DNA from: Haliotis cracherodii
Taxonomy: Eukaryota
Direction: 5' to 3'
NCBI RefSeq assembly: GCF_022045235.1
Contig: NW_027266279.1
Coordinates: forward strand, 12,152,001-12,216,000
DNA: 64,000 nucleotides
The position numbers and the translations under genes were made by a program. The notes under the pieces are model-generated. The model was not told where the DNA came from. It saw only the letters and a program-made list of their open reading frames with translations, and made no database searches. Shown in pieces: positions 44,261 to 58,312 of the stretch; position 1 is the first letter of the stretch; each line of letters starts with the position of its first letter.

Positions 44261-44755
44261 AAAATTTTATGGCAGACATGTGGAGGAAATGTGTAAATTT
44301 GACGCATCATGGACAAATAATGATGTCCGATGCAGTTCCTATTTTGACATTTTCCATTGGTTTAAGTAGGGAACATTCATTTTGAGAATGAGGAGTGAAC
44401 AATATTGTAATGCATTATGGAACATACTCAATAGAAATTGTGTTTATACAGTAGCATGTCAAATTTCCATTTCAAGAAAGGGAACTGAAAGTTTAACAAA
44501 GCCAAGGAAAACGACAAATGATTGCAACCATGATAGCACTCACATTGACAATATCAGGTGTTTGTGAAAGTGGACACATAAAAAACTATCAATACTGCAT
44601 GTATTCGCGTAACATCCGGTTCATAAGGTCAAACGTGTAGCTTGTCCACTATAGCATATGTGAATATGAGAGGAATAACATTTCAGAGTAAGTTAGTTAT
44701 TTCCAGATGGATGTTCACATTATTCAGTATTGCTTGGCAACGGTATAAAAATCTA

Positions 44756-45304
44756 AGTAGTTAAGTACTGTGGTATGGAACACCTCAGGATTATGGAACC
44801 ACTCAGGATTATGGAACCGGAAGTGACGTCACATCCTCTGTGACGTCACTTCCGGTCACGTGACCTGCGCAGTGCATGATGGGACTCTGCGCGTGCGCCT
44901 CCAAGATGGCGTCGCTTCCGTTTCCGGTGGCGTGCGCCTCCAAGAGGGCGTGGCTTCCGTGTCCGGTGGCGTGCGCCTCCAAGAGGGGCGTCGCTTCCGT
45001 GTCCGGAGTCGCGCGCCTCCAAGAGGGGCGTCGCTTCCGTGTCCGGAGGCGCGCGCCTCCAAGAGGGGTGGCGCTTCCGTGTCCGGTGGCGCGCGCCTCC
45101 AGGGGGTGGCGGTGGTGGAGGGAGGGAGGGAGGGAGGGAGGGAGGGAGGGTGGTGGTGGTGAAGGGAGGGAGGGAGGGAGGAAAGGAAGGAAAGGAGGAG
45201 GAGACGGGTTCATGGTGTGGGTGGGTGGGTGGGTGGGAGGGTCGTCAAAGCAAAGGAGGAAAGTTGTCTTTCGGGAGAGATGGGTGGCCCTGAAAAGGGC
45301 CGTT
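44756..45304 (+). repeat. Left terminal inverted repeat (549 bp)
   Basis: Reverse complement of 56077-56647; contains TATGGAAC repeats, a 41-bp palindrome, 39-40 bp GC-rich tandem units, (GGGA)n and a histone-type stem-loop. Confidence 0.96.
44816..44856. promoter_or_regulatory. Palindrome of two ETS-CRE composite sites in the left TIR
   Basis: ACCGGAAGTGACGTCACA-TCCTC-TGTGACGTCACTTCCGGT: 18-bp perfect stem, followed by E-box GTCACGTGAC. Confidence 0.75.
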
Positions 45305-45307
45305 TTG
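45264..45307 (-). terminator. Histone-type 3' stem-loop and downstream element (copy 1)
   Basis: Minus strand CAAAAC-GGCCCTTTTCAGGGCC-ACCCA-TCTCTCCCGAAAGACAA; stem-loop 45286-45301, 10 nt after the stop of ORF 45312-45650. Confidence 0.88.
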
Positions 45308-45311
45308 ATAT

Positions 45312-45650
45312 TTACATGCATGTGCACGCCATGGTGCAAAGGCACGGGTGGACTTTCATTTGACGTCTGACAGGACACCTACTGGTGTGCGTTAACCGAC
45401 GCACGTAGGTGTCCTTGAGGATGGTCTTACAGTACACACATTCGAAAGTCCCATCCCGTGCCCTTGTGCCAAGGGCGTACACAGGCAGGCCCCCTTGGCA
45501 TCTGTCGCATTGCCATGCTGGAGACCATGGTGGTGGTGGTGGTGATGCTTCTTTCCACCCGGGCAAAGGTTGTTTCACTGTGGCGATTTCTAAATCCCAG
45601 TTTTCTTTCATGTGGTAGTTGTTGCTGTTGCTGTTGCTGCTGCTCATCAT
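45312..45650 (-). CDS. Small Cys-rich putative zinc-binding protein (112 aa)
   Basis: CDRC...CVYC pair and terminal CLCTMACTC; ATG ~50 nt downstream of the TATAAAA of promoter copy A; stop next to the histone stem-loop. Confidence 0.68.
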   Translation of the reverse strand: MMSSSNSNSNNYHMKENWDLEIATVKQPLPGWKEASPPPPPWSPAWQCDRCQGGLPVYALGTRARDGTFECVYCKTILKDTYVRRLTHTSRCPVRRQMKVHPCLCTMACTCM

Positions 45651-45659
45651 GATGAATCA

Positions 45660-45962
45660 ATTTTACAAGTGACACTGACCCACTCGAATCCACTGTTGTT
45701 TTATAGGAGAGGTACTGACACCCACCCTCCTGGTTGGTTCGCCAGACCGCAGCTCCGATTGGTTCGTTCCGGGGCCTGGTCAGCACCTCGGTTTTCCAAA
45801 ACGGACCGACCCCTGTGTTTCTTTTCCATAGGAAATGGATTTTACCATGGGAGAGAAAGCACAACCCCGGTTCGGCCAATCAGAGCCCCACCTGGTCCGA
45901 GCACCGCTTCTGATTGGTCGACAACCCAGGCTTCGGATTGGTCCCATTTCGATCCGGTTTTT
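45660..45962 (-). promoter_or_regulatory. Repeated multi-CCAAT/TATA promoter module, copy A
   Basis: Homologous to 47332-47630, 52040-52275 and 55030-55300; TATAAAA on the minus strand at 45705-45699. Confidence 0.8.
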
Positions 45963-46503
45963 TCTTCTTGGGTAGCCTTGGTATTTTTTTTTGAGGTAGA
46001 CGGTCGTCTGAATGCTAAAGGAAGGTGGACCTTCATCGGTAGACATGAACGTGGGAATGCCTACGTGATGTACGTGTGTGTCACTCCCATGCCAATCGGA
46101 ATGTCATGTGTGCATGTGTGTGTGTGGGTATGTGTGTATGTCTTCAAACAGACGTTGACGTTGATGTATAGAATAGCGTGTGGTCAGGCAAAACGTAGTG
46201 TCGCGATGTGAACGTCATGTACACGTGGTGTCCTGTGTGTGTGTGTGTGTGTCTTCAAATTAGTATTATTATGATTATTTAAGGATACCGAGGTGTTGAC
46301 ACCCGTGTAAGTCGACAGACGTACTGTGACACGTGTTTTCATGCACACGTGATGTTTGACGTGGTGTACCACGTGTCTCTATTGATCTATTTATATTTAT
46401 ATCTATTTATTTTATTTTTAGACGTGTGCCTCCAAGAGGCCTAGGGGAGGGTGTGGGTTCTTTGTTTTGGATTGTCATTGTTTGGCAAAGCAAAGGTAGA
46501 AAG

Positions 46504-46549
46504 TTGTCTTTTGGGTGAGATGGGTGGCCCTGAAAAGGGCCGTTTTGGG
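46504..46549 (-). terminator. Histone-type 3' stem-loop and downstream element (copy 2)
   Basis: Minus strand CCAAAAC-GGCCCTTTTCAGGGCC-ACCCA-TCTCACCCAAAAGACAA; stem-loop 46526-46541, ~310 nt downstream of the BIR gene stop. Confidence 0.86.
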
Positions 46550-46854
46550 AAAGAAGAAAACTTTTCTGCTGCTGTCCAAGAAGAATGATCATGTCCAAGC
46601 TTATTGACAAGACAAGGATCGTCGAAGGGGTACTTGCTGCCATCTGGGTATGTCATCGGGGTGACCACCGTGACACCACTTGTGGGTCCAACAAAGAAAA
46701 GTTTGTTGGAAACAGGAAGCGGAAACAGATTGAACCATTCACAACAACAACTGTAGACAAACGGGAACTTGAACGGGAACTGGAACGGGAACTTGAACGG
46801 GGAACTGGAACGGGAACTTGAACGGGAACGCAGGACACGAGAAACGTCGTCCTC

Positions 46855-47331
46855 CTAGGCAGCCGGCTCTGCTACGTCATTCGTGTACCTCTGTTTCTCT
46901 TCGCAGAGATAGTGTAGTTGTAGTTGCTTCTGGTGTTTCACCAGCCCGGTTAGCTTGAGGTAATCGCAGTCTGGGGACCACTTGTGATGTGCCGCCCAAG
47001 GATTGTCGTGGGGTGCCCATTGTCTCAGCCGCACACCACATTGGAAACAGCACACACCATCGGCACCCTGAGTGTAGACAAAGCCCGCATGAGCCATCTC
47101 CTCAGCAGTCTGATACATTTGCGTGGGCCACGTCTCAAACGAAGCGAGCCTTCTTTCAAAGCGCAGATAATAGTGCGATGGTGTTTGACTGAGCAGTGAC
47201 ACCGCCTCCTCGGCATGACTCTTACTCCAACATGCACGAGTATCTGTACCCTCCATTCCCACATCTTCGCTACGCGTCGTCGTCGTACCACTCCTCTTTG
47301 TTTCAGCCATTCTTGATTTTATCACATCCAT
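46855..47331 (-). CDS. Single-BIR-domain inhibitor-of-apoptosis-like protein 1 (158 aa)
   Basis: RRLASFETWP...MAHAGFVY...DGVCCFQCGVRLRQW...DNPWAAHHKWSPDCDYL: complete BIR with CxxC...H...C zinc ligands. Confidence 0.93.
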   Translation of the reverse strand: MDVIKSRMAETKRSGTTTTRSEDVGMEGTDTRACWSKSHAEEAVSLLSQTPSHYYLRFERRLASFETWPTQMYQTAEEMAHAGFVYTQGADGVCCFQCGVRLRQWAPHDNPWAAHHKWSPDCDYLKLTGLVKHQKQLQLHYLCEEKQRYTNDVAEPAA

Positions 47332-47630
47332 TTTACAAGTGACACTGACCCATTCGAATCCACTCTTGTTTTATGGGGGAAGAACCGGATCGAAATGGGG
47401 TGCTTCCTGGTTGGTCCAAAACGCAACGCACCGATTGGTTCGTTTCGGGGCCTGGCCTGCACCTCGGTTTTCCAAAACGACCCGACCCCTGTGTTTCTTT
47501 TCCATAGGAAATGGATTTTACCATGGGAGAGAAAGCACAACTCGGGTCGGGTGCTGCCTTCTGATTGGTCGAGGCTGTCTTCTGATTGGTCGACAATCCA
47601 GGCTTCGGATTGGTCCGATTTCGATCCTGT
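47332..47630 (-). promoter_or_regulatory. Promoter module copy B, between the divergent BIR1 and pPolB genes
   Basis: Four ATTGG boxes, CATAAAA at 47375-47369, and the same 5' leader (GTGGATTCGA.TGGGTCAGTGTCACTTGTAAAA) as copy A. Confidence 0.8.
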
Positions 47631-47708
47631 TTTGGGGAAGGGTTGTCCATCCATCAGACGTTCAGACCCTCTTAGAGTACAGGCGTTCATCAGACACACA
47701 TCGTTATC

Positions 47709-50700
47709 ATGACGAGCAACCAAAGTACGCCCTATCGTTTGGAGAGGAAAGATACCACCCGCTCCAGACGGTTAAGAACTGCTAATCATACCTATCGTTT
47801 GACTTTCAACCCAGACTACTTGGACACCGTACCACCGGAACGCGTCCCCCTGGAACTGCCAGCTTTATTTGACAGGGTGATCGATGACTTTTATGAACAG
47901 ATGTCAGGTCAGAAGGGAGATCGTATTGGTCTAGGTATCGATCATCCCGCTTTGAACACCCCCATACGGATTCCCTTTCGACGTTTTGAAGATCTCCATG
48001 GGCCAGATATTTTGCAGGCCGTGGAAAAAGTCCAACAGTCCAACAAAGACCTGAACATCGATGACACCATGGATGTGACTTTAGTACACGTCGCAGATCC
48101 CGACAGGCTAGGATCGGGCAGTGGTGCTCCCCGGGTGAAAAACGTGATTGGACTCGAAGCTTTTTTAACACGCAAAAGGTGCATCGTACGGATCAAGAAC
48201 GAAGATCAATCCTGTTTGGCACGGGCCCTGGTGGTGGCACAGCATTATGCCCACAAACCCCATCCTTTGACCCCAGCATGGAAAGCCCAGTTAGTGAGAC
48301 TGATGAGAACGAATCGCGTCGACGTTCAAGGCCTACGGGCACGGGCCTTGTTTCGACGCCTTGGCCTGCCTGAAGGTCCCTGTCGGGGGCTGGACGACCT
48401 CGCACGCGTGGGACGGGCCTTGACCCACCTGCATTATCAACTGAAAGTCTACAGTCAAGAGGTGGGTCAGAGACTGTTGTACAAGTGTGATGAGGCTCCA
48501 CCTCACGCCACGGTGCTGCATCTATACCATCATGATCAGCACTACGATGTCATCACTTCCATGTCCGCTTTTTACGGGTCTGACCATTACTGCGAACGTT
48601 GCGACAAACGTTACGACCATCCCGAAAAACATCCCTGCACCAAGGAATACCGCTGTCACCGCTGCTTCTACTCTAGCTATTGTGGACCCCAGGAAGAGCT
48701 CGGGATCCCTTGCTTGACATGTCAAGGTTGGTTCCCCAATCCAACGTGTTACACCCGACATCTCCAGTCACCGTCAGAGGGAAAACCCAGCGCCTGTCAA
48801 TCGATTCACAGGTGCCCGAACTGTTTTCAGCTGGTCCGCGTCTTGGAGACCCCCATGGTTCACCACGAGTGCTTCGACGAAGAACATCCCTGCTTGGTGT
48901 GCCGAGAACCCATGACCCCAGACCATCGCTGTTACATGACGCCTCTCCGTGAAGAAAACGAGGAGGGGGAGGAGGGGGAGGAGGGGGAGGGGGAGGGGGG
49001 AGAGGAAACGGAGAAGGAGGGGGAAGAGGAACAACATCACGTACGAGACGACGTCCAATACGTCTTCTACGATTTTGAATGCATGCAAGACACGGGGGAA
49101 CACATTCCAAATTTGTGCGTGGTGCAACTAGGATGTGGACGATGCATCAGTGAAGTGAGCAAGAACTTGTGCGAACACTGCCCATGGAGAGAAGAAGGGT
49201 ATGGTCCCAGCCGTGAGATCGTGTTTCGAGGGCCCACCACGCGACATGATGTGTGTGTGTGGTTGACCACGTTGTGTGAAATACCCAAGAAGAAGAAGCC
49301 CAACCCGGAGGAAGAGGAGGACAGCACACGCAAGGGCACAACAGCCCCCCTGGGGAAAAAAAGAAAACGGGATGGCACCCCCTCAAGAAAGGACGCTACC
49401 AAACGTCAACGGCATGCATCACCCCAGCAGGAGGCGGAGGAGACGGAAGAGGTGGAGGAGGTGGAAGAGGTCATGGAAGTGGAGAAAACAAAGAAGCCAA
49501 AGAACAAGAACACCTCCTGCCATACAGTCCCGAAGGAGGATCGCATTTATGTGATGGCCCACAATGCACGATCCTATGATTTACACTTAATCCTGAAGGG
49601 CCTGTCCCCCCTCCTGGTGACGCTCCCCACCAAGATTCGACATGGCCAACACATTTTGCAGATGACCCTGGGACGGCTGTGTTTCGAAGACAGCTTAAAT
49701 TTCATCCCTTACCCCCTGAAAGCCTTTCCCAAGAGCTTTGGGCTGAAAGAAATGAAGAAAGGGTACTTTCCACACTTTTTCAATACGAGAGTCAACCAGA
49801 CCTACAGAGGTCCCTATCCACCAGCCGTCACGTACGATCCCGATGGCATGTCTCCCGCGGAACGCTCAGCCTTCCTCCAGTGGCATACCCAAAAAGTGCA
49901 AGAAGGAGCCTTGTTCGACTTACAAGAAGAACTTTTAGCTTACTGCCAGAGCGATGTGGACATTTTGAGACGGGGATGCGCCGACTTCCGACAGAACGCC
50001 ATCCACTCGGTGGGCATGGATCCCTTTGTGGAAGTGATGACAGCTGCTGCGTTCACCATGAAATCCTTCCGAAAACACGACCTGAAACCCAATACCATCG
50101 CCATTCTTCCACCTCAAGGCTACCAACCCAAGAGAAACTATTCCCAGGCCTGTATGCACTGGCTCCACTCTCTGATGGAAAGGGACCCCCATCTGCACCT
50201 CCAGCACGCCAGGAATGGCGGTGAAAAAGAGTTCACCTGTGGAGAGGGTCAACATCGGTACAGCGTGGATGGGTACGATCCAGCGACAGGCACCGTCTAC
50301 GAATTCCTGGGCTGTTTCTGGCATGGGTGCAACACCTGTCACAAGACCCGACGTGGAGAACCGCATCCCGTCCTGGGCACGTCGTTGGGAGCCCGTTACA
50401 CCGACACCCACTACCGCTTGAGTCTCTTGAGTCAACACCCTGAGGTGAAACGGGTCGTCGCCCTGTGGGAGCACGAATTTACGAAAATGCAACGGGAGGA
50501 CTCCGCTCTACGTGCTTTCTTGCAGGGACCCCACTGTCGTCACGTCCCCGGGCCACTCAACCCTCGCGACGCCTTCTATGGAGGACGCACCAATGCCACG
50601 CGATTATGCTACGAAGCCCAAGAAGGTGAAACCATCAAGTACATCGATATTTGTTCCCTTTATCCCTACATTTGTAAGACCGGAGCGTTTCCCACGGGAC

Positions 50701-51971
50701 ACCCGACCCTTCTCCATCAACCCCCTGTGGACACGTTGTTTGAACTGAAAGGCCTGATCCAATGCCGTGTCCTACCCCCGAAACGACTCTACCATCCGCT
50801 ACTGCCTTACAGATTGGGCGGCAAACTGCTCTGTCCTTTGTGCCGTACGTGTGCCGATACCCGGTCAGACTCCCCCTGCGAGCACACGGACGAAGAGAGG
50901 TCATGGGTGGGGACGTACGCCACCGTAGAACTCCAGGAAGCCGTGAAGAAGTATGACTACCGGGTGCTTCAGATCTACGACGTTTGGCATTTTGACACCT
51001 TTGCACAGCATGACCCCGACACCCAGCAAGTGGGACTCTTTGACACTTACATCGATCGACATTTCAAGGAGAAGCTCGAAGCCAGCGGATACCCCGAAGG
51101 ATGTACGGATCACGACGCTTACATCCAGGAGATCTACGACAAAGAAGGCATTCGGTTGGACAAGGACCGCATCGAAAAAAATCCAGGACGCCGCACGATT
51201 GCCAAGATGCAACTGAATTCGCTCTGGGGCAAGTTTGGGCAACGGGTAGACTACAGTCAGAACGTCTATATGAACGATCCTGCACAGTACTTTGCCTTGT
51301 GGAGGGATGACCGCAATACCATCGAGGATGTGACCGTTGTCAACGAACACATGGTGGATGTGACCTATACCCAGCGGAAAGAATTCCAAACCCCTCATTC
51401 TCATTTCAATGTCGCCATCGCTGCTTGGGTCACCGCCCAAGCACGTCTCAAGCTGTACGAGACCCTTGCCCTGGTGGGCCGCAGGGTCTTGTACTTTGAC
51501 ACGGACAGCGTCATTTACATTCATCGACCCCACGACGCGAATCCAGAGCTGGGTCATTCGTTGGGTGAGTTTACGGATGAACTGGACGGAAACACCATCA
51601 AGACGTTTGTGTCAGGAGGTCCCAAAAACTATGGCTATGAGTTAATGAACCCCAGACCCGATGGAACGCGCACGACCTGCAAAGTGCGAGGGTTCACTTT
51701 GAATTACCGAAACCAACGCCATCTCAACTTTGACACCATGAAAGGACTGATACTGGGACAACGGTCTGGGAAAGAGGAGGAAGAGAAAATCAGTTTGGAT
51801 TACCCTCATCAGATCATTCGAAAAGGACCTCGGCACGAAAACGCACTCGTGACCCGCCCCACCCGAAAAGACTATCGTACCGTGTACGACAAGCGACGTG
51901 TGGTCTACGACGACACCACAGGCCTACCTGTAGACACGCTACCCTTTGGGTACAGAGACGACTTTCTATAA
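47709..51971 (+). CDS. polB: Protein-primed family B DNA polymerase (Polinton pPolB), 1420 aa
   Basis: ExoI VFYDFEC, ExoII AHNARSYD, ExoIII YCQSDVDIL, FYGGRT, motif A YIDICSLYP, motif B KMQLNSLWGKFGQ, motif C YFDTDS, GPKNY, KVRGF; uninterrupted ORF. Confidence 0.97.
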   Translation: MTSNQSTPYRLERKDTTRSRRLRTANHTYRLTFNPDYLDTVPPERVPLELPALFDRVIDDFYEQMSGQKGDRIGLGIDHPALNTPIRIPFRRFEDLHGPDILQAVEKVQQSNKDLNIDDTMDVTLVHVADPDRLGSGSGAPRVKNVIGLEAFLTRKRCIVRIKNEDQSCLARALVVAQHYAHKPHPLTPAWKAQLVRLMRTNRVDVQGLRARALFRRLGLPEGPCRGLDDLARVGRALTHLHYQLKVYSQEVGQRLLYKCDEAPPHATVLHLYHHDQHYDVITSMSAFYGSDHYCERCDKRYDHPEKHPCTKEYRCHRCFYSSYCGPQEELGIPCLTCQGWFPNPTCYTRHLQSPSEGKPSACQSIHRCPNCFQLVRVLETPMVHHECFDEEHPCLVCREPMTPDHRCYMTPLREENEEGEEGEEGEGEGGEETEKEGEEEQHHVRDDVQYVFYDFECMQDTGEHIPNLCVVQLGCGRCISEVSKNLCEHCPWREEGYGPSREIVFRGPTTRHDVCVWLTTLCEIPKKKKPNPEEEEDSTRKGTTAPLGKKRKRDGTPSRKDATKRQRHASPQQEAEETEEVEEVEEVMEVEKTKKPKNKNTSCHTVPKEDRIYVMAHNARSYDLHLILKGLSPLLVTLPTKIRHGQHILQMTLGRLCFEDSLNFIPYPLKAFPKSFGLKEMKKGYFPHFFNTRVNQTYRGPYPPAVTYDPDGMSPAERSAFLQWHTQKVQEGALFDLQEELLAYCQSDVDILRRGCADFRQNAIHSVGMDPFVEVMTAAAFTMKSFRKHDLKPNTIAILPPQGYQPKRNYSQACMHWLHSLMERDPHLHLQHARNGGEKEFTCGEGQHRYSVDGYDPATGTVYEFLGCFWHGCNTCHKTRRGEPHPVLGTSLGARYTDTHYRLSLLSQHPEVKRVVALWEHEFTKMQREDSALRAFLQGPHCRHVPGPLNPRDAFYGGRTNATRLCYEAQEGETIKYIDICSLYPYICKTGAFPTGHPTLLHQPPVDTLFELKGLIQCRVLPPKRLYHPLLPYRLGGKLLCPLCRTCADTRSDSPCEHTDEERSWVGTYATVELQEAVKKYDYRVLQIYDVWHFDTFAQHDPDTQQVGLFDTYIDRHFKEKLEASGYPEGCTDHDAYIQEIYDKEGIRLDKDRIEKNPGRRTIAKMQLNSLWGKFGQRVDYSQNVYMNDPAQYFALWRDDRNTIEDVTVVNEHMVDVTYTQRKEFQTPHSHFNVAIAAWVTAQARLKLYETLALVGRRVLYFDTDSVIYIHRPHDANPELGHSLGEFTDELDGNTIKTFVSGGPKNYGYELMNPRPDGTRTTCKVRGFTLNYRNQRHLNFDTMKGLILGQRSGKEEEEKISLDYPHQIIRKGPRHENALVTRPTRKDYRTVYDKRRVVYDDTTGLPVDTLPFGYRDDFL

Positions 51972-52039
51972 CTTTTTTTTTTGCATGACAAGGGGATCGA
52001 AACTGAATCGACATGAACCCCTTACAGAAAAAAAAAAAA

Positions 52040-52275
52040 AAAAACGGATCGAAATCGGACCAATCCGAAGCCTGGGTTGTCGACCAATCAGAGACCGTGC
52101 TCGAGCCATGGTGGGCTCTGATTGGTCGAACCGAGGTTGTGCTTTCTCTCTCACGCTACAAGCCTAACCCTATGGAAAAGAAACACAAGGGTCGGTCCAG
52201 TTTGGAAAAATGGAGACTCAGACCAGACACCGGAACGGACCAATCAGAAAGCAGGACCTCCGTGGCTTTTAATAC
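52040..52275 (+). promoter_or_regulatory. Promoter module copy C (most diverged)
   Basis: GGATCGAAATCGGACCAATCCGAAGCCTGGGTTGTCGACCAATCAG... shared with the other copies; TTTTAATA in the TATA position; upstream of the gene at 52481. Confidence 0.75.
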
Positions 52276-52480
52276 GCCCGATGCTCTCCGGTCATCACTT
52301 TTCACTGAACCGACCAAGCAACCACATCGCCCCCCTCTGATTGATGTTCCTCACGTTGTGTTGGTTGTTGGCGTTTTATCTGGAAGAAACACGTGTTTGG
52401 AGAGAGTACCATCAAGTGTTGACGCACCTCCGTGAAGACTTGAAAAGAAACAACAACGAACAGAACATCCGGACAACATC

Positions 52481-53565
52481 ATGTCGAAACGGTTGAATGA
52501 CAAGACACGAAGCGACATGAGTGGCCAAGGAAGCAGTGGAGATGGGAACGGTGACATGACTGCTGAACTGTGGGGTGAAGTGTACGACTTGCTGTGTTTA
52601 AAGATGAAGACCGACGACGCGTACGCCAAGTTACGTGCGAAGGGCGACAACCTGATGTGCGAACAGATACGTTCAAAGATGAGGAAGCTGACTGAACCCG
52701 AGAAAGGCACATCGAAGAAGACGATAAAGAAGATCCAGAAGAAAAAGACAAGCAAGCCCACAGTCGTTGTGATCCCCACAGCAGCAGCAACACCCACCAC
52801 CACCACCACCACATCAGCAACAGCAACAACGGCTGCAGCGACCACAGACATCGAAACGATGGGGACATCCTTTTTGAAACCTGCAACGCCTGCAAAAAGA
52901 CGATCACGGAAGAAATTATCTCTGAAGATCTCTCCTCAAGAACAGCTGTAAGTACCCTTGCTCTTCTTTGTCTCAGTCATTCTTGATGTGATTCATATTC
53001 ATGACCTATTCCTATGATAAATGGACTCTGTCCTATGATTGACAGGACCCCTGATGTCAGTTCAGCCCAGGCCGTGCTAGAACAGTGGTGGGAACAAACC
53101 CCTCGGGAGCCCACCTATTCACCGAATGCCCCTGCTGTGACGATGGCGACGGGTGACCGTGAGGATCATGAAGCGCTCAAGCTGGCCACTCTCCCTTCCA
53201 TGGATCTGGACACGCTCCCCCTGCTTGAGGCTTCTTGGTCACCAACATCCCCGGAAGATGTTCATGTCTACTCCTCAGGTACGCCCCTGGTTTGCGACGA
53301 TAATGAAGATGATGATGATGTGGATGACAACGACGTTGACCTGGATCCTTATGGAGAAGCTCAACTCACTCCCCTACAACGCGGATGTCGTATTTGCCGA
53401 CACAACAACATGTTAAGATACATCAGTTGCAACAGCGGGCAAGTGATGTGTCATACCTGTGGTCTGGAGCTCATAGACTGTACTTGTAGTATGTTGACCT
53501 ATGACCGCATAATGACACATGATGACATGCCTATCACATCTGCTGAGGATCACATCTTATGGTGA
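52481..53565 (+). CDS. Spliced ~328-aa protein with LxCxD, acidic tract and C4 zinc finger (E1A/E7-like layout); exons 52481-52947 and 53046-53565
   Basis: Donor CT|GTAAGT at 52948 and acceptor TTGACAG|G at 53045 join the two ORFs in frame; C-terminal LVCDDNEDDDDVDD...GCRICRH...MCHTC; AATAAA at ~54005. Confidence 0.72.
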
Positions 53566-54303
53566 TCCTCCTCTTCACTCGAAGAACTTGTCAACACGTA
53601 TGCTGCAACCGTGATCAAGTGATGTGTCATGTCTGTTTCAGGGAGACCATAGACTGTACGTGTTGAACGGATGGACCTCTCACAGGGTTGAGGGAGGACC
53701 ACCTCTTATGGGCTTGAAGATGGAAGAGGAAAACGTTGTCGCGTTATTGTTGTTGTTGTAGGGACATGCAAAGCACTCCCTCCTCCATTGACTTTTCGTA
53801 TTTCCGTTGTATCTGGTTGTGATTGGTTTTTTTTCATGATTAAACAGTGATTGATTGAACTGACTCTTTGTGTCTTGATTGATCTCAACTCCAATAGAGT
53901 GCCGAACCGAGGGTAGAGGTTGAGTTGAGATGTCGTTGACGTTGTCTGTCCGTCTGTCTGTCTGTGCATCTGTCATGTCAGTGCACACCCAAGTGTAAAA
54001 TTAAAATAAAAAATAGATAAAAGAGAAAGGCCATGCTTGAAAGATCAGCTGCCTGGTGTCGGTCATTCCAGTACGCATCGATCCCCACACCCCCTCCCCG
54101 TGTACCATGTCATGTCATGGATCGTGTCACGAATCATGCCGTGTGTCCGTCAACCCAAACACAGGATGACGTCACGTGATGAGGTGAAGGAGGTGGAGGA
54201 GGTGGAAGCTAAGGTCATGACCTTCCGTGGAAGGGAGTAGGGTGGAGAGTTTCATAAAAGCAGGCGAACCCTCAGACCTTCTTTCAGTGAAGTCACCGTC
54301 ATC

Positions 54304-54816
54304 ATGGAGCAAAGACGTTCTATGAATGCCATGTCATCCTCCCGAGATGTCGTCACCGATTCCGAGTGGGTGTCTGAAAAGGCGAGAGAACAAGAAGCGA
54401 GAAAACATTCCCTCTTTAGGGACGACACGTGGCGACTCAGTGACATTCTGGAGGGACCTTTTCCTTCTTACACCCTGTGTCATCCTTCTCATCCCCACTA
54501 TGATTCATTTCAAGAACGTCTGAGATCTTTTAAAACGTGGCCTCAACAGATGACCCAGACCCCGTATGACATGGCCATGGCTGGCTATTTCTATCCAGGA
54601 CAAGGTGATTGTGTGACCTGTTATTGCTGCGGTGTGGCACTCCGCCAATGGGAAGCCACAGACCAACCCTGGAAAGAACATCTGAAGCACGCCAAAGTCC
54701 CCTGCGAATACTTGTGTGTGTTTTGTCCTGATGGAGAAGTGAACGAAAAATACAGACGTTTGGTGTCCCAAGAAGCACGGAAGAGAAGAGTCGAGTGTCT
54801 TGTTCACCCCAAGTGA
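54304..54816 (+). CDS. Single-BIR-domain inhibitor-of-apoptosis-like protein 2 (170 aa)
   Basis: ERLRSFKTWP...MAMAGYFY...DCVTCYCCGVALRQWEATDQPWKEHLKHAKVPCEYL; CATAAAA ~50 nt upstream and TGACGTCACGTGA at ~54167. Confidence 0.93.
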   Translation: MEQRRSMNAMSSSRDVVTDSEWVSEKAREQEARKHSLFRDDTWRLSDILEGPFPSYTLCHPSHPHYDSFQERLRSFKTWPQQMTQTPYDMAMAGYFYPGQGDCVTCYCCGVALRQWEATDQPWKEHLKHAKVPCEYLCVFCPDGEVNEKYRRLVSQEARKRRVECLVHPK

Positions 54817-55029
54817 CAACGTTTCTTTTTTCAAAGTGTACAGACGTTCATACCCCCAGTGTTCACAAAAGTCACAGGGACGGTCCCCCCTCATCCTGTG
54901 ACTTTTTGTTTTGTGGTGTTGGTTCATGTGAGCGAGGGGATTAAATTTTTTTTAAAAACTCATAGTGGTGTTCTGTGGTCTGTAGGATGAAGAAAAACAA
55001 AACAGGATCGAAATGCACACCCCGATAAA

Positions 55030-55300
55030 AAAAACCGGATCGAAATTGGACCAATCCGAAGCCTGGGTTGTCGACCAATCAGAGACCGTGCTCGGGTCAT
55101 GCGGGGCTCTGAATGGTCGAACCGGGGTTGTGCTTTCTCTCCCATGGTAAAATCCATTTCCTATGGAAAAGAAACACAGGGGTCGGTCCGTTTTGGAAAA
55201 CCGAGGTGCAGACCAGGCCCCGAAACGAACCAATCGGGGGCGCGGCCTGGGGAACCAATCAGGAGGGTGGGTGTCAGTGACTCTCCTATAAAAACAAAAC
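55030..55300 (+). promoter_or_regulatory. Promoter module copy D
   Basis: CCAAT at 55051, 55075, 55230, 55255 and TATAAAA at 55287; upstream of the zinc-knuckle ORF. Confidence 0.82.
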
Positions 55301-55342
55301 AAGAGCGAAGCCACTCACACACACACACACACACTGCATTCT

Positions 55343-55945
55343 ATGAAACCCATCATGCCAGCTCGATACAGTTGTATGAAGTGCCAGACCGACAGTCACA
55401 GTTACCTGTACTGCCCTGAAGTGACATGCCTCGAGTGTGGCACTCAAGGTCACCGTCACTATGTCTGTCCGAAGATGAACAGTCAAGAGAAGCAGGAGAA
55501 TCGGAACCTGGACCGCTGTTACAACTGTGAAGCCCTGGGTCATTTCGCTGCAGATTGCCCAGAACCCAGTCGAAAGAAGACTCCCCATCGCCTGGACCAC
55601 TGTTACAACTGTCAAGCCCTGGGTCATTTCGCTGCAGATTGCCCAGAACCCAGTCGAAAGAAAACGTCAGCAACACCGTCCACGTCGACACCCGTGGCAC
55701 CCGTGACACCCGTGACACCCGTGACACAAGTGGTTCATCTCATCGAAGACGTGCACGTCGATGTCCTCGACCTAAAAGAATACCTCGCACAACTCCGGGC
55801 GGACATCACACCTCTTGTAGAGAAAAGAAAACGGGTCAGAAGCCTCTCAAGAAAGCACGCTTCAAAGCGCCGACGACACCTTCAGTCCGAGGATGAGATG
55901 GAAGTAGAGGGTGAAGAAGAGAGATCATCTGAACAAAGTGACTAA
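55343..55945 (+). CDS. Four-CCHC zinc-knuckle nucleic-acid-binding protein (200 aa)
   Basis: CMKCQTDSHSYLYC, CLECGTQGHRHYVC, CYNCEALGHFAADC, CYNCQALGHFAADC (all C-x2-C-x4-H-x4-C); basic NLS-like and acidic tail. Confidence 0.88.
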   Translation: MKPIMPARYSCMKCQTDSHSYLYCPEVTCLECGTQGHRHYVCPKMNSQEKQENRNLDRCYNCEALGHFAADCPEPSRKKTPHRLDHCYNCQALGHFAADCPEPSRKKTSATPSTSTPVAPVTPVTPVTQVVHLIEDVHVDVLDLKEYLAQLRADITPLVEKRKRVRSLSRKHASKRRRHLQSEDEMEVEGEEERSSEQSD

Positions 55946-56074
55946 CGCATGGGGCCATGCTACCCCACTGTTTTTTTACCAGTGTCCCATCGTTTGCAGT
56001 TTTTCCAGTGTTCCAGTGTTCCAGTGTTCCTGACGTTTCCTGTCGTTTCCAGTTTCCAGTTTCCAGTTTGTTTT

Positions 56075-56117
56075 CCAACGGCCCTTTTCAGGGCCACCCA
56101 TCTCTCCCGAAAGACAA
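56075..56117 (+). terminator. Histone-type 3' stem-loop and downstream element (copy 3)
   Basis: CCAAC-GGCCCTTTTCAGGGCC-ACCCA-TCTCTCCCGAAAGACAA; stem-loop 56080-56095, ~135 nt after the zinc-knuckle stop. Confidence 0.88.
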
Positions 56118-56647
56118 CTTTCCTCCTTTGCTTTGACGACCCTCCCACCCACACCATGAACCCGTCTCCTCCTCCTTTCCTCCCTCCCTCCCTCCCTCAA
56201 TTCACCACCACCACCCTCCCTCCCTCCCTCCCTCCCTCCCTCCCTCCACCACCGCCACCCCCTGGAGGCGCGCGCCACCGGACACGGAAGCGCCACCCCT
56301 CTTGGAGGCGCGCACCTCCGGACACGGAAGCGACGCCCCTCTTGGAGGCGCGCGCCTCCGGACACGGAAGCGACGCCCCTCTTGGAGGCGCACGCCACCG
56401 GACACGGAAGCCACGCCCTCTTGGAGGCGCACGCCACCGGACACGGAAGCCACGCCCTCTTGGAGGCGCACGCCACCGGAAACGGAAGCGACGCCATCTT
56501 GGAGGCGCACGCGCAGAGTCCCATCATGCACTGCGCAGGTCACGTGACCGGAAGTGACGTCACAGAGGATGTGACGTCACTTCCGGTTCCATAATCCTGA
56601 GTGGTTCCATAATCCTGAGGTGTTCCATACCACAGTACTTAACTACT
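56077..56647 (-). repeat. Right terminal inverted repeat (571 bp)
   Basis: Reverse complement of the left TIR with one extra 39-bp unit and small indels in the (GGGA)/(GGGT) tracts. Confidence 0.96.
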
Positions 56648-56846
56648 AATCTACACCCAAACGTCGCTATTAAATTATAAGAAAGCCGTTGTTATCGGTA
56701 AACGGTATCTACTTTAGATTTGTAAAGACTAAAGGACAGGAGGAAAACGCTAACATGCACTGACCGAGGGGCCTTCTTCAAGTCCGAACGCTTCGGGAGT
56801 CACTGTCGCCTCGTTGATCACCCCCGTCGCCCTGTCCGTGCAGCCC

Positions 56847-57684
56847 CCGCTTGACCAGTCCAGATGCCTGCCTGGTGATCGCTCTACCGCTTGACCAGTC
56901 CAGATGCCTGCCTGGTGATCTCCCTACCGCTTGACCAGTCCAGATGCCTGCCTGGTGATCTCCCTACCGCTTGACCAGTCCAGATGCCTGCCTGGTGATC
57001 TCTCTACCGCTTGACCAGTCCAGATGCCTGCCTGGTGATCTCCCTACCGCTTGACCAGTCCAGATGCCTGCCTGGTGATCTCTCTACCGCTTGACCAGTC
57101 CAGATGCCTGCCTGGTGATCTCCCTACCGCTTGACCAGTCCAGATGCCTGCCTGGTGATCTCTCTACCGCTTGACCAGTCCAGATGCCTGCCTGGTGATC
57201 TCCCTACCGCTTGACCAGTCCAGATGCCTGCCTGGTGATCTCTCTACCGCTTGACCAGTCCAGATGCCTGCCTGGTGATCTCTCTACCGCTTGACCAGTC
57301 CAGATGCCTGCCTGGTGATCTCTCTACCGCTTGACCAGTCCAGATGCCTGCCTGGTGATCTCTCTACCGCTTGACCAGTCCAGATGCCTGCCTGGTGATC
57401 TCCCTACCGCTTGACCAGTCCAGATGCCTGCCTGGCGATCTCTCTACCGCTTGACCAGTCCAGATGCCTGCCTGGCGATCTCCCTACCGCTTGACCAGTC
57501 CAGATGCCTGTCTGGTGATCTCTCTACCGCTTGACCAGTCCAGATGCCTGCCTGGTGATCTCTCTACCGCTTGACCAGTCCAGATGCCTGTCTGGTGATC
57601 TCCCTACCGCTTGACCAGTCCAGATGCCTGCCTGGTGATCTCTCTACCGCTTGACCAGTCCAGATGCCTGCCTGGTGATCTCCC
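56847..57684. repeat. 40-bp minisatellite (CCGCTTGACCAGTCCAGATGCCTGCCTGGTGATCTCYCTA)
   Basis: About 21 almost identical units. Confidence 0.96.
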
Positions 57685-58312
57685 TTTCGAAACCTACTGG
57701 CAGATGTGGCATTTGGTTGCTTGACACAAACGTATGCATCTCTAATAATCTGTAATCTCTAGAAACATGTTAAAAGTACGTCATGTATATGCTGACAATG
57801 ACACAACATGATTAAATACATAGTAAATACTCCTATTATTCCGGTAAAAACAATACGTAAAAACATGATCTTAATGTTATTTAAAACCTACCTATCATCA
57901 CACTGAACGTTTGTGCCAGTAGGTTCTGATCACTTTGTCAGTAAACAATGCTCTTGGCAACATGAAAGAATTAATTGTAACTCTTATCCTAAGTGAAATA
58001 GTTTGATGTGGAGGTTTTTGTTTTATCGATGCTGAAACTAAACAAATATATAAAGAGTAATATATTCCAAGTCAGTGACTAGAAAACTGATGGTGCGAAG
58101 CGAGACATGTGGGTTCGGCGATATCAGAGCCGAGCGACAATATTATCATTGGATTATACTAATATTATACCAACGGAAAATATACAGTGGCGCAAAATGT
58201 TGTTATTAAGAATGTTATTGAAAATAACAACTAGACATATGGTCACCTGTTTGATCAATGTTGCCTCAAATCAAATTTATTGACAAAACCGAAGCTTGGT
58301 AACGGGAGAAAG

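Follow-up and report, generated by a model that had tools for sequence, protein, structure and literature searches.

Polintons (Mavericks) are recognised by a protein-primed family B DNA polymerase (pPolB), TIRs, (AGT)2//(ACT)2 termini and a 6-bp target-site duplication (TSD), and intact vertebrate Mavericks are described as intronless, both according to the available part of Barreat and Katzourakis 2021 (PMC8097293). Accessory genes termed 'Oncoids' have been described in adintoviruses and Polintons, with short motifs as the only basis for calling them (Starrett et al. 2021, PMC8502044, sections accessible). A further relevant precedent is adenovirus E1A, some of whose isoforms drop the zinc finger by alternative splicing (PMC5930299, in the part available). 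An alignment in the available portion of bioRxiv 2023.08.22.554363 includes pPolB2 of the abalone H. rufescens.

The window analysed here, 64,000 nucleotides of the Haliotis cracherodii genome (contig NW_027266279.1, positions 12,152,001 to 12,216,000 of the forward strand), contains a Polinton derivative with a spliced gene (Table 1), which a preliminary description had read as an E1A/E7-like Rb antagonist. On balance we favour the reading that an abalone Polinton without integrase and capsid carries here a spliced accessory gene, that this gene gives rise to two proteins by alternative splicing and that the longer one carries a captured, degenerate SIAH-type RING. Neither this abalone family nor any Polinton with a SIAH-like RING or an alternatively spliced gene appeared in the literature covered, which was read at listing level apart from the papers cited and from which subscription titles are largely missing; Figs S1 and S2 of PMC8502044 may list mollusc Oncoids.

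Table 1. Features of the element and of its spliced gene (positions within the window)
Feature	Position	Strand	Remarks
Polinton/Maverick derivative	44756..56647	.	11,892 bp; termini AGTAGT//ACTACT
TSD, 6 bp	44750-44755, 56648-56653
TIRs	44756-45304, 56077-56647		about 550 bp
Histone 3' stem-loops, three	45261-45306 (-), 46501-46546 (-), 56075-56120 (+)		RF00032
Cys-rich ORF, 112 aa	45312-45650	-	two CxxC pairs and Cys-rich tail
Second BIR-only gene	46855..47331	-	PF00653, E 1.1e-22
pPolB	47709..51971	+	1420 aa, open frame; PF03175, E 3.6e-35; upstream neighbour of spliced gene
Putative promoter	52060..52274	+	CCAAT boxes and TATA-like TTTAATA; consensus matches only
Exon 1, coding part	52481..52947	+	467 nt (phase 2); N-terminal region, two Lys/Arg-rich NLS-like tracts, length-variable Thr/Ala repeat
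Intron 1	52948..53045	+	98 nt, GT-AG; starts GTAAGT, ends CAG
Exon 2a	53046..53278	+	common to both isoforms; acidic, Ser/Pro/Thr-rich, Trp patches
Alternative intron 2	53279..53641	+	363 nt, GT-AG; retained in long (328 aa), removed in short (236 aa) isoform
LVCDD	53287..53301	+	LxCxD look-alike, specific to the young subfamily
Cys7 finger	53386..53487	+	C-x2-C-x10-C-x6-C-x2-C-x6-C-x-C; conserved block from 53344 (DPY) to terminal HIL
Stop codon, long isoform	53563..53565	+
Non-coding tandem duplicate of the finger's second half	53604..53685	+	contains intron 2 acceptor
Exon 3, coding part, short isoform	53642..53652	+	three residues, then stop; RefSeq short models end alike
AATAAA, candidate poly(A) signal	54005..54010	+	only one on the element's + strand
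BIR-only (IAP-like) gene	54304..54816	+	PF00653, E 1.6e-20; downstream neighbour of spliced gene
Zinc-knuckle (zf-CCHC) protein gene	55343-55945	+	basic C-terminal tract; Pfam scan

The Polinton derivative and its gene content

The element shares pPolB, TIRs, (AGT)2//(ACT)2 ends and a 6-bp TSD with Polintons/Mavericks as characterised in the available part of PMC8097293, and the TSD was present in all three element copies examined. It differs from them in its gene content: no integrase, packaging ATPase, protease or capsid was detected among its ORFs in the Pfam scan or in 10 further copies, which were read as separate 10-kb flanks, were collinear or internally deleted and had no extra module inside. 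It also differs in having three histone stem-loop cassettes and, compared with the intact vertebrate Mavericks, in having an intron-bearing gene. The 112-aa Cys-rich ORF gave no Pfam match at E<=10.

For the exon-2 protein at least 155 matches were found in the H. cracherodii genome, and 21 of the 150 pPolB matches listed lie within open frames of at least 1426 aa, which indicates that the element family is young. The element thus has an open pPolB and none of the four other genes, yet it shows perfect 6-bp TSDs and many near-identical copies, which implies mobilisation in trans; we infer that the integrase is supplied by an autonomous family. A32-like ATPases are present elsewhere in the genome (at least 150 scored matches). 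TIR ends vary within the young subfamily, the terminal 25 bp of the window copy differing from those of two other young copies beyond base 13. A 40-bp tandem array (56687-57826) starts 40 bp past the right end of the element.

The putative promoter of the spliced gene belongs to a repeat cassette (family D15; inverted pairs I5, I20 and I21) that is also found before other element genes. CCAAT-rich copies of 120-270 bp lie ahead of several of them (45699-45963, 47431-47633, 52032-52209 and 55027-55293), and this arrangement looks like a shared promoter. At the 3' side, the preliminary description had assigned an AATAAA rather than a stem-loop to the spliced gene, and this holds: the histone stem-loops sit in three other cassettes, where they follow the Cys-rich ORF, the BIR gene on the minus strand and the zinc-knuckle gene. 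All three exceed the Rfam gathering score (35.6-36.8 bits against 34), and two of them lie at the inner TIR ends. Among the papers listed by a literature search there was no case of a histone stem-loop in a Polinton, and these structures are possibly more striking than the spliced gene itself.

Two introns and two isoforms

The 98-nt GT-AG intron across which the preliminary description had joined two ORFs is confirmed. Position 53046 is the third codon base in the frame of the ORF 53014-53565, so both ORFs join in frame and the product has, by arithmetic, 328 aa. The GC content of intron 1 is 38%, compared with 50-52% in the exons. Its sites are kept in nearly all copies: among 69 other copies the donor GTAAGT was found in 61 (6 unaligned, 2 changed) and the acceptor CAG in 62 (5 unaligned, 2 changed). 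Exon 1 varies between 377 and 527 nt and still keeps its phase (length 2 mod 3) in 47 of the 60 copies that aligned, and intron 1 measures 97-146 nt in 63 aligned copies, never zero. A less clean point is that 12 of the 19 distinct intron 1 lengths are themselves 2 mod 3, a bias that we put down to triplet-repeat expansion.

Splice joints were also read from four runs of three studies, which consist of contigs of guessed RNA status, with a likeness of 88 and 20-30 letters on the short side of the joint. The exact joint 52947>53046, at which the preliminary description had proposed a check by RNA-seq reads, occurs in one of the four, run X1, where a single contig shows it with 20 letters on its short side. 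In run X2 a joint lies 9 nt upstream, consistent with a tandem acceptor of older copies that RefSeq models use too, and contigs of the runs also cover intron 1. These joints support, and do not prove, the splicing of intron 1. The junction 52947/53046 itself is read across by RefSeq Haliotis models, which are computational and which we take to rest on RNA evidence; such models are also the closest named proteins, at 80-96% identity apart from two at 66% and 71%. We conclude that intron 1 is real.

Two other lines of reasoning were rejected. Genomic copies that appeared intronless are no proof of splicing, as their open frames of about 300 aa are stop-free read-through of intron 1 in the frame of exon 2; the intron is kept in all 50 copies inspected for intronless forms. 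Nor do the joints appear to reflect DNA deletions, as no aligned copy lacks intron 1 (63 copies) or intron 2 (50 copies); one intron 2 value of 163 nt was read as an unduplicated copy. Run X1 contains a further joint that skips 131 nt (52948-53080; depth 32, ends TA..TA as listed), which may represent another acceptor or a deletion in another copy.

The second intron had been missed in the preliminary gene model. Its joint (53278/53642) was found in all four runs of the three studies, with 21-30 letters on the short side and RNA status again guessed, and RefSeq holds both forms, including pairs labelled X1/X2 at single loci. With intron 2 spliced out, the protein loses LVCDD, the acidic run and the finger and ends three residues further on. 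The donor GT is present in 61 of the 69 copies (7 unaligned, 1 changed). Older copies have the acceptor within the coding sequence of the finger. In the young subfamily the second half of the finger is duplicated, and the AG has been lost from the coding unit and kept in the downstream non-coding duplicate. This pattern was seen in 39 of the 62 copies with an aligned donor; the others showed one unit with AG (14), one unit without AG (6) or none (3), in a survey that detected just one unit in several duplicated copies, and in 7 more copies the donor was unaligned. Some intermediate copies carry acceptor-type sequence in both units. That the acceptor was kept through the duplication suggests that both isoforms matter, and we hold the two-isoform structure of the gene with high confidence.

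The LVCDD motif and selection along the protein

The basic NLS-like tracts, LVCDD, the acidic run and the Cys cluster on which the preliminary description had built are all present. Its formula GCRIC-x17-MCHTC needs amendment, however: the spacer comprises 16 residues and holds a further conserved Cys, and the cluster has seven Cys rather than four. On the Rb-antagonist reading, LVCDD would bind the Rb pocket, the finger would act like that of E1A CR3, and S phase would be driven for the benefit of pPolB and the histone-type cassettes. The order of motif, acidic run and Cys finger speaks for such a function, as do the Oncoid genes of adintoviruses (PMC8502044, accessible sections), a functional LxCxD in HCMV pp71 (PMC7080695, in the part available), the finger-dropping splicing that parallels the E1A isoforms and the three histone stem-loops, which suggest S-phase coupling of the element.

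The motif site was surveyed in 70 loci, 30 of which were picked as most window-like, so that the sample is biased towards the window; 61 copies were readable and 9 unreadable. Among the readable copies LVCDD occurred in 33 and LVSDD in 1 (34 with Leu in total), 23 had Met first and 4 another form. The central Cys is kept in 58 of the 61 (lost in LVSDD, EVRDD and VVRDD), which may be counted in favour of Rb binding; Glu at position 5, on the other hand, was found in none of them, and Leu is confined to the young subfamily. The H. rufescens models read have Met at position 1, except one with Thr. In 17 distant homologues (H. rubra, H. asinina and further records) there was neither an LxCxE nor an equivalent site before the finger, and one of them has [LIM]xCx[DE] far upstream. 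The Gly of 'GCR' is a young-subfamily state too.

The window motif lacks the acidic residues at -1 to -3 and the hydrophobic residues at +2/+3 that are tied to affinity in the available part of bioRxiv 2022.06.10.495386; some older copies carry Val at +3. A regex scan with the definitions given in the accessible sections of PMC8502044 revealed no CR1 motif, and its CK2 matches, at exon-2 residues 18, 67, 157 and 164, include none close behind the motif at residue 81. LxCx[DE] arose in 13.5% of 10,000 shuffles of the exon-2 protein, so that the motif alone is within chance. Pfam scans with cut-offs of E<=1 and E<=10 returned nothing for E1A (PF02703), and neither did a genome search, whose control likewise gave no match; patterns for CtBP, BS69 and SIAH-degron motifs were not found.

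When selection was estimated from single-base codon variants common to at least 2 of the 69 copies, which are related so that p values are indicative, the finger gave an omega of 0.16 (20 synonymous, 12 nonsynonymous, p 3e-7). The value for exon 2a was 0.53 (p 0.013), or 0.43 (p 0.004) when variants had to be shared by at least three copies. The motif plus acidic run gave 0.86 (4 synonymous, 13 nonsynonymous; small n), i.e. no purifying selection, two exon-1 segments gave 0.77 and 0.67 (not significant) and the tail 1.16. Singletons ranged from 0.68 to 1.21 (0.97 in the finger), as expected for decay after insertion. As controls, the other frames of the finger gave 1.0-1.1; for the motif segment, a value of 0.28 (p 0.04) came from one control frame. 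Distant, H. rubra-type homologues conserve only the block that starts at DPY, includes the finger and ends with the terminal HIL. On these data, the finger is under purifying selection and the LxCxD is young and unselected.

The gene resembles Oncoids, as far as the accessible sections of PMC8502044 describe them, in being a small accessory gene beside pPolB with adjacent paired CxxC, as in the Oncoid definition, and with IAP-like neighbours. It differs from them in having no LxCxE, CR1 or CK2 site just downstream of the motif, in lying downstream rather than upstream of pPolB, in being spliced and in its RING-like finger. With adenovirus E1A and papillomavirus E7 it has in common a spliced, largely low-complexity viral-type protein with isoforms that contain or lack the zinc finger. 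Unlike these proteins, it shows no sequence match and no conserved Rb motif, and its second splice shifts the frame and ends the protein. The preliminary description had itself named lack of conservation at the LxCxD position as grounds for dropping its reading, and because this position is not conserved the E1A/E7-like interpretation is not supported. LVCDD is likely a chance look-alike of an Rb-binding motif, and we regard a role of the gene as an Oncoid-like Rb antagonist as very improbable.

Affinities and possible roles of the cysteine finger

In E1A, the CR3 finger has four Cys and a spacer of 13 residues; the abalone finger appears to fit a SIAH-type RING better. Its Cys spacing of 2,10,6,2,6,1 compares with 2,10,6,2,6,2 in the host SIAH RING, a locus that matches PDB 9g0l with E 6.5e-26; the spacing of ligands 1-3 and 5-7 is thus shared with SIAH-type RING-HC domains, as is the segment C-x-SG-x-x-x-C-x-x-C. 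With hhalign, 22 copies aligned to host SIAH with a probability of 88.8 and E 2.5e-6 over 35 ungapped columns, an E-value that becomes about 0.06 when multiplied by 24,736 families. The finger profile scored 22.1 bits on SIAH, compared with 6.9+/-3.7 bits for Cys-fixed shuffles, of which 2 of 1000 reached that score. A wider profile scored 22.5 bits (12 of 3000 shuffles), and SIAH was the best of 49 host zinc domains, which were kept out of 68 loci, the others being without two CxxC or containing a stop. IAP-type RINGs followed with 16-17 bits. Separately, a large cluster of IAP-type C-terminal RING exons was observed in the host genome (C23:19.36-19.93 Mb).

In Pfam, Sina_RING (PF21362) was the most frequent match (9 of 22 members), at a level far below the family cut-off (8 bits against 29.3; best E 0.52) and picked post hoc; better best E-values were obtained for Cript (E 0.0085, 4 of 22) and A2L_zn_ribbon (E 0.097, 6 of 22). 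A profile search of the PDB did not retrieve the SIAH1 RING 9g0l at E<=10, though it is in the library, and PDB sequence searches gave matches at E>=0.15 only. AlphaFold models were of low confidence (pLDDT 43.2 and 48.5), both placing a beta hairpin at CxxC; fold searches with Foldseek PDB and VIA-align wide returned no match, an uninformative outcome, and the best ESM Atlas score of 0.79 was to unnamed clusters (a lead only). Homologues were found in Haliotis and in no other genus among records carrying a genus name, none had 551-2000 aa, and the viral_contigs search gave no relative. P0040 was rejected as a spurious homologue, being a repeat protein. None of 122 matches was a host paralogue outside the element, as judged by overlap with element-family loci.

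Taken at the sequence level, the finger is probably RING-derived. It is not a canonical SIAH RING: the ligand-4 His is replaced by a nearly invariant Gln, the last pair is CxC and not C-P-x-C, Pro and the linchpin Arg are missing and the score stays under the family cut-off. In contrast to SIAH, moreover, the finger is C-terminal and is accompanied by neither the SIAH zinc fingers nor a substrate-binding domain. Extra invariant His at positions 22 and 39 (alignment A3), together with a near-invariant terminal His, might supply a zinc ligand. If one of them served as the fourth ligand, the long isoform could be an active, atypical RING E3 ligase that ubiquitinates host or element proteins. The strong selection on the finger would agree with such an activity, and RINGs with a non-Arg linchpin can be active with selected E2s, according to the part of PMC13769585 available, which also covers the role of the linchpin in RINGs. 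We give this possibility little credence, since the finger departs from RINGs at the His, Pro and linchpin Arg positions and in its CxC last pair, and since the protein has no recognisable substrate-binding domain.

An alternative is that the protein is a transcriptional regulator of the CCAAT cassettes of the element. Its acidic/Trp patches would then form an activation domain, its Cys domain would be either an A2L/TFIIB-like zinc ribbon or a novel fold, and the short isoform would be a competitor. NLS-like tracts and acidic-aromatic patches occur in both lineages, and the weak A2L_zn_ribbon match, the beta hairpin of both models and the repetition of the promoter cassettes would fit this role. 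A TFIIB ribbon was nevertheless rejected, the host TFIIB-search hits scoring 0.1-3.3 bits with the finger profile, within the shuffle range, and a ribbon needs four Cys, which would leave three conserved Cys over. A regulator of this kind, which we consider unlikely, need not conflict with a RING origin, as there are viral transactivators that bear a RING.

On the favoured reading of a captured SIAH-type RING, the protein would be nuclear, judging from its basic tracts, and the finger would bind zinc in a RING-like manner. As the finger lacks the His of the fourth ligand, the Pro and also the linchpin Arg, its part in the ubiquitin pathway of the host may be that of a decoy or binding module and not of a full E3 ligase. 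The long isoform, together with the two BIR-only proteins, could then dampen apoptosis or surveillance during replication of the element, with intron 2 as an on/off switch and the short isoform as the off state. This decoy or anti-apoptotic role is put forward tentatively. Somewhat more speculative still is the full scenario, in which a satellite-like Polinton captured a host SIAH RING and turned it into a catalytically dead ubiquitin decoy, splice-switched via the acceptor preserved by duplication, which would form, with the BIR and stem-loop genes, an S-phase-coupled anti-apoptotic programme of host control.

With its two introns and two isoforms, this Polinton gene contrasts with the intronless intact vertebrate Mavericks of the available part of PMC8097293. 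The locus also illustrates how a call from a short motif can mislead: the LxCxD is young and unselected, and the part under selection resembles a host-derived RING. The hosts of this family belong to a group of farmed and endangered molluscs. If both the RING origin and the decoy role are true, a mobile element would have acquired a ubiquitin-ligase module from its host and would control cell death with it in these animals, a proposition that is testable.
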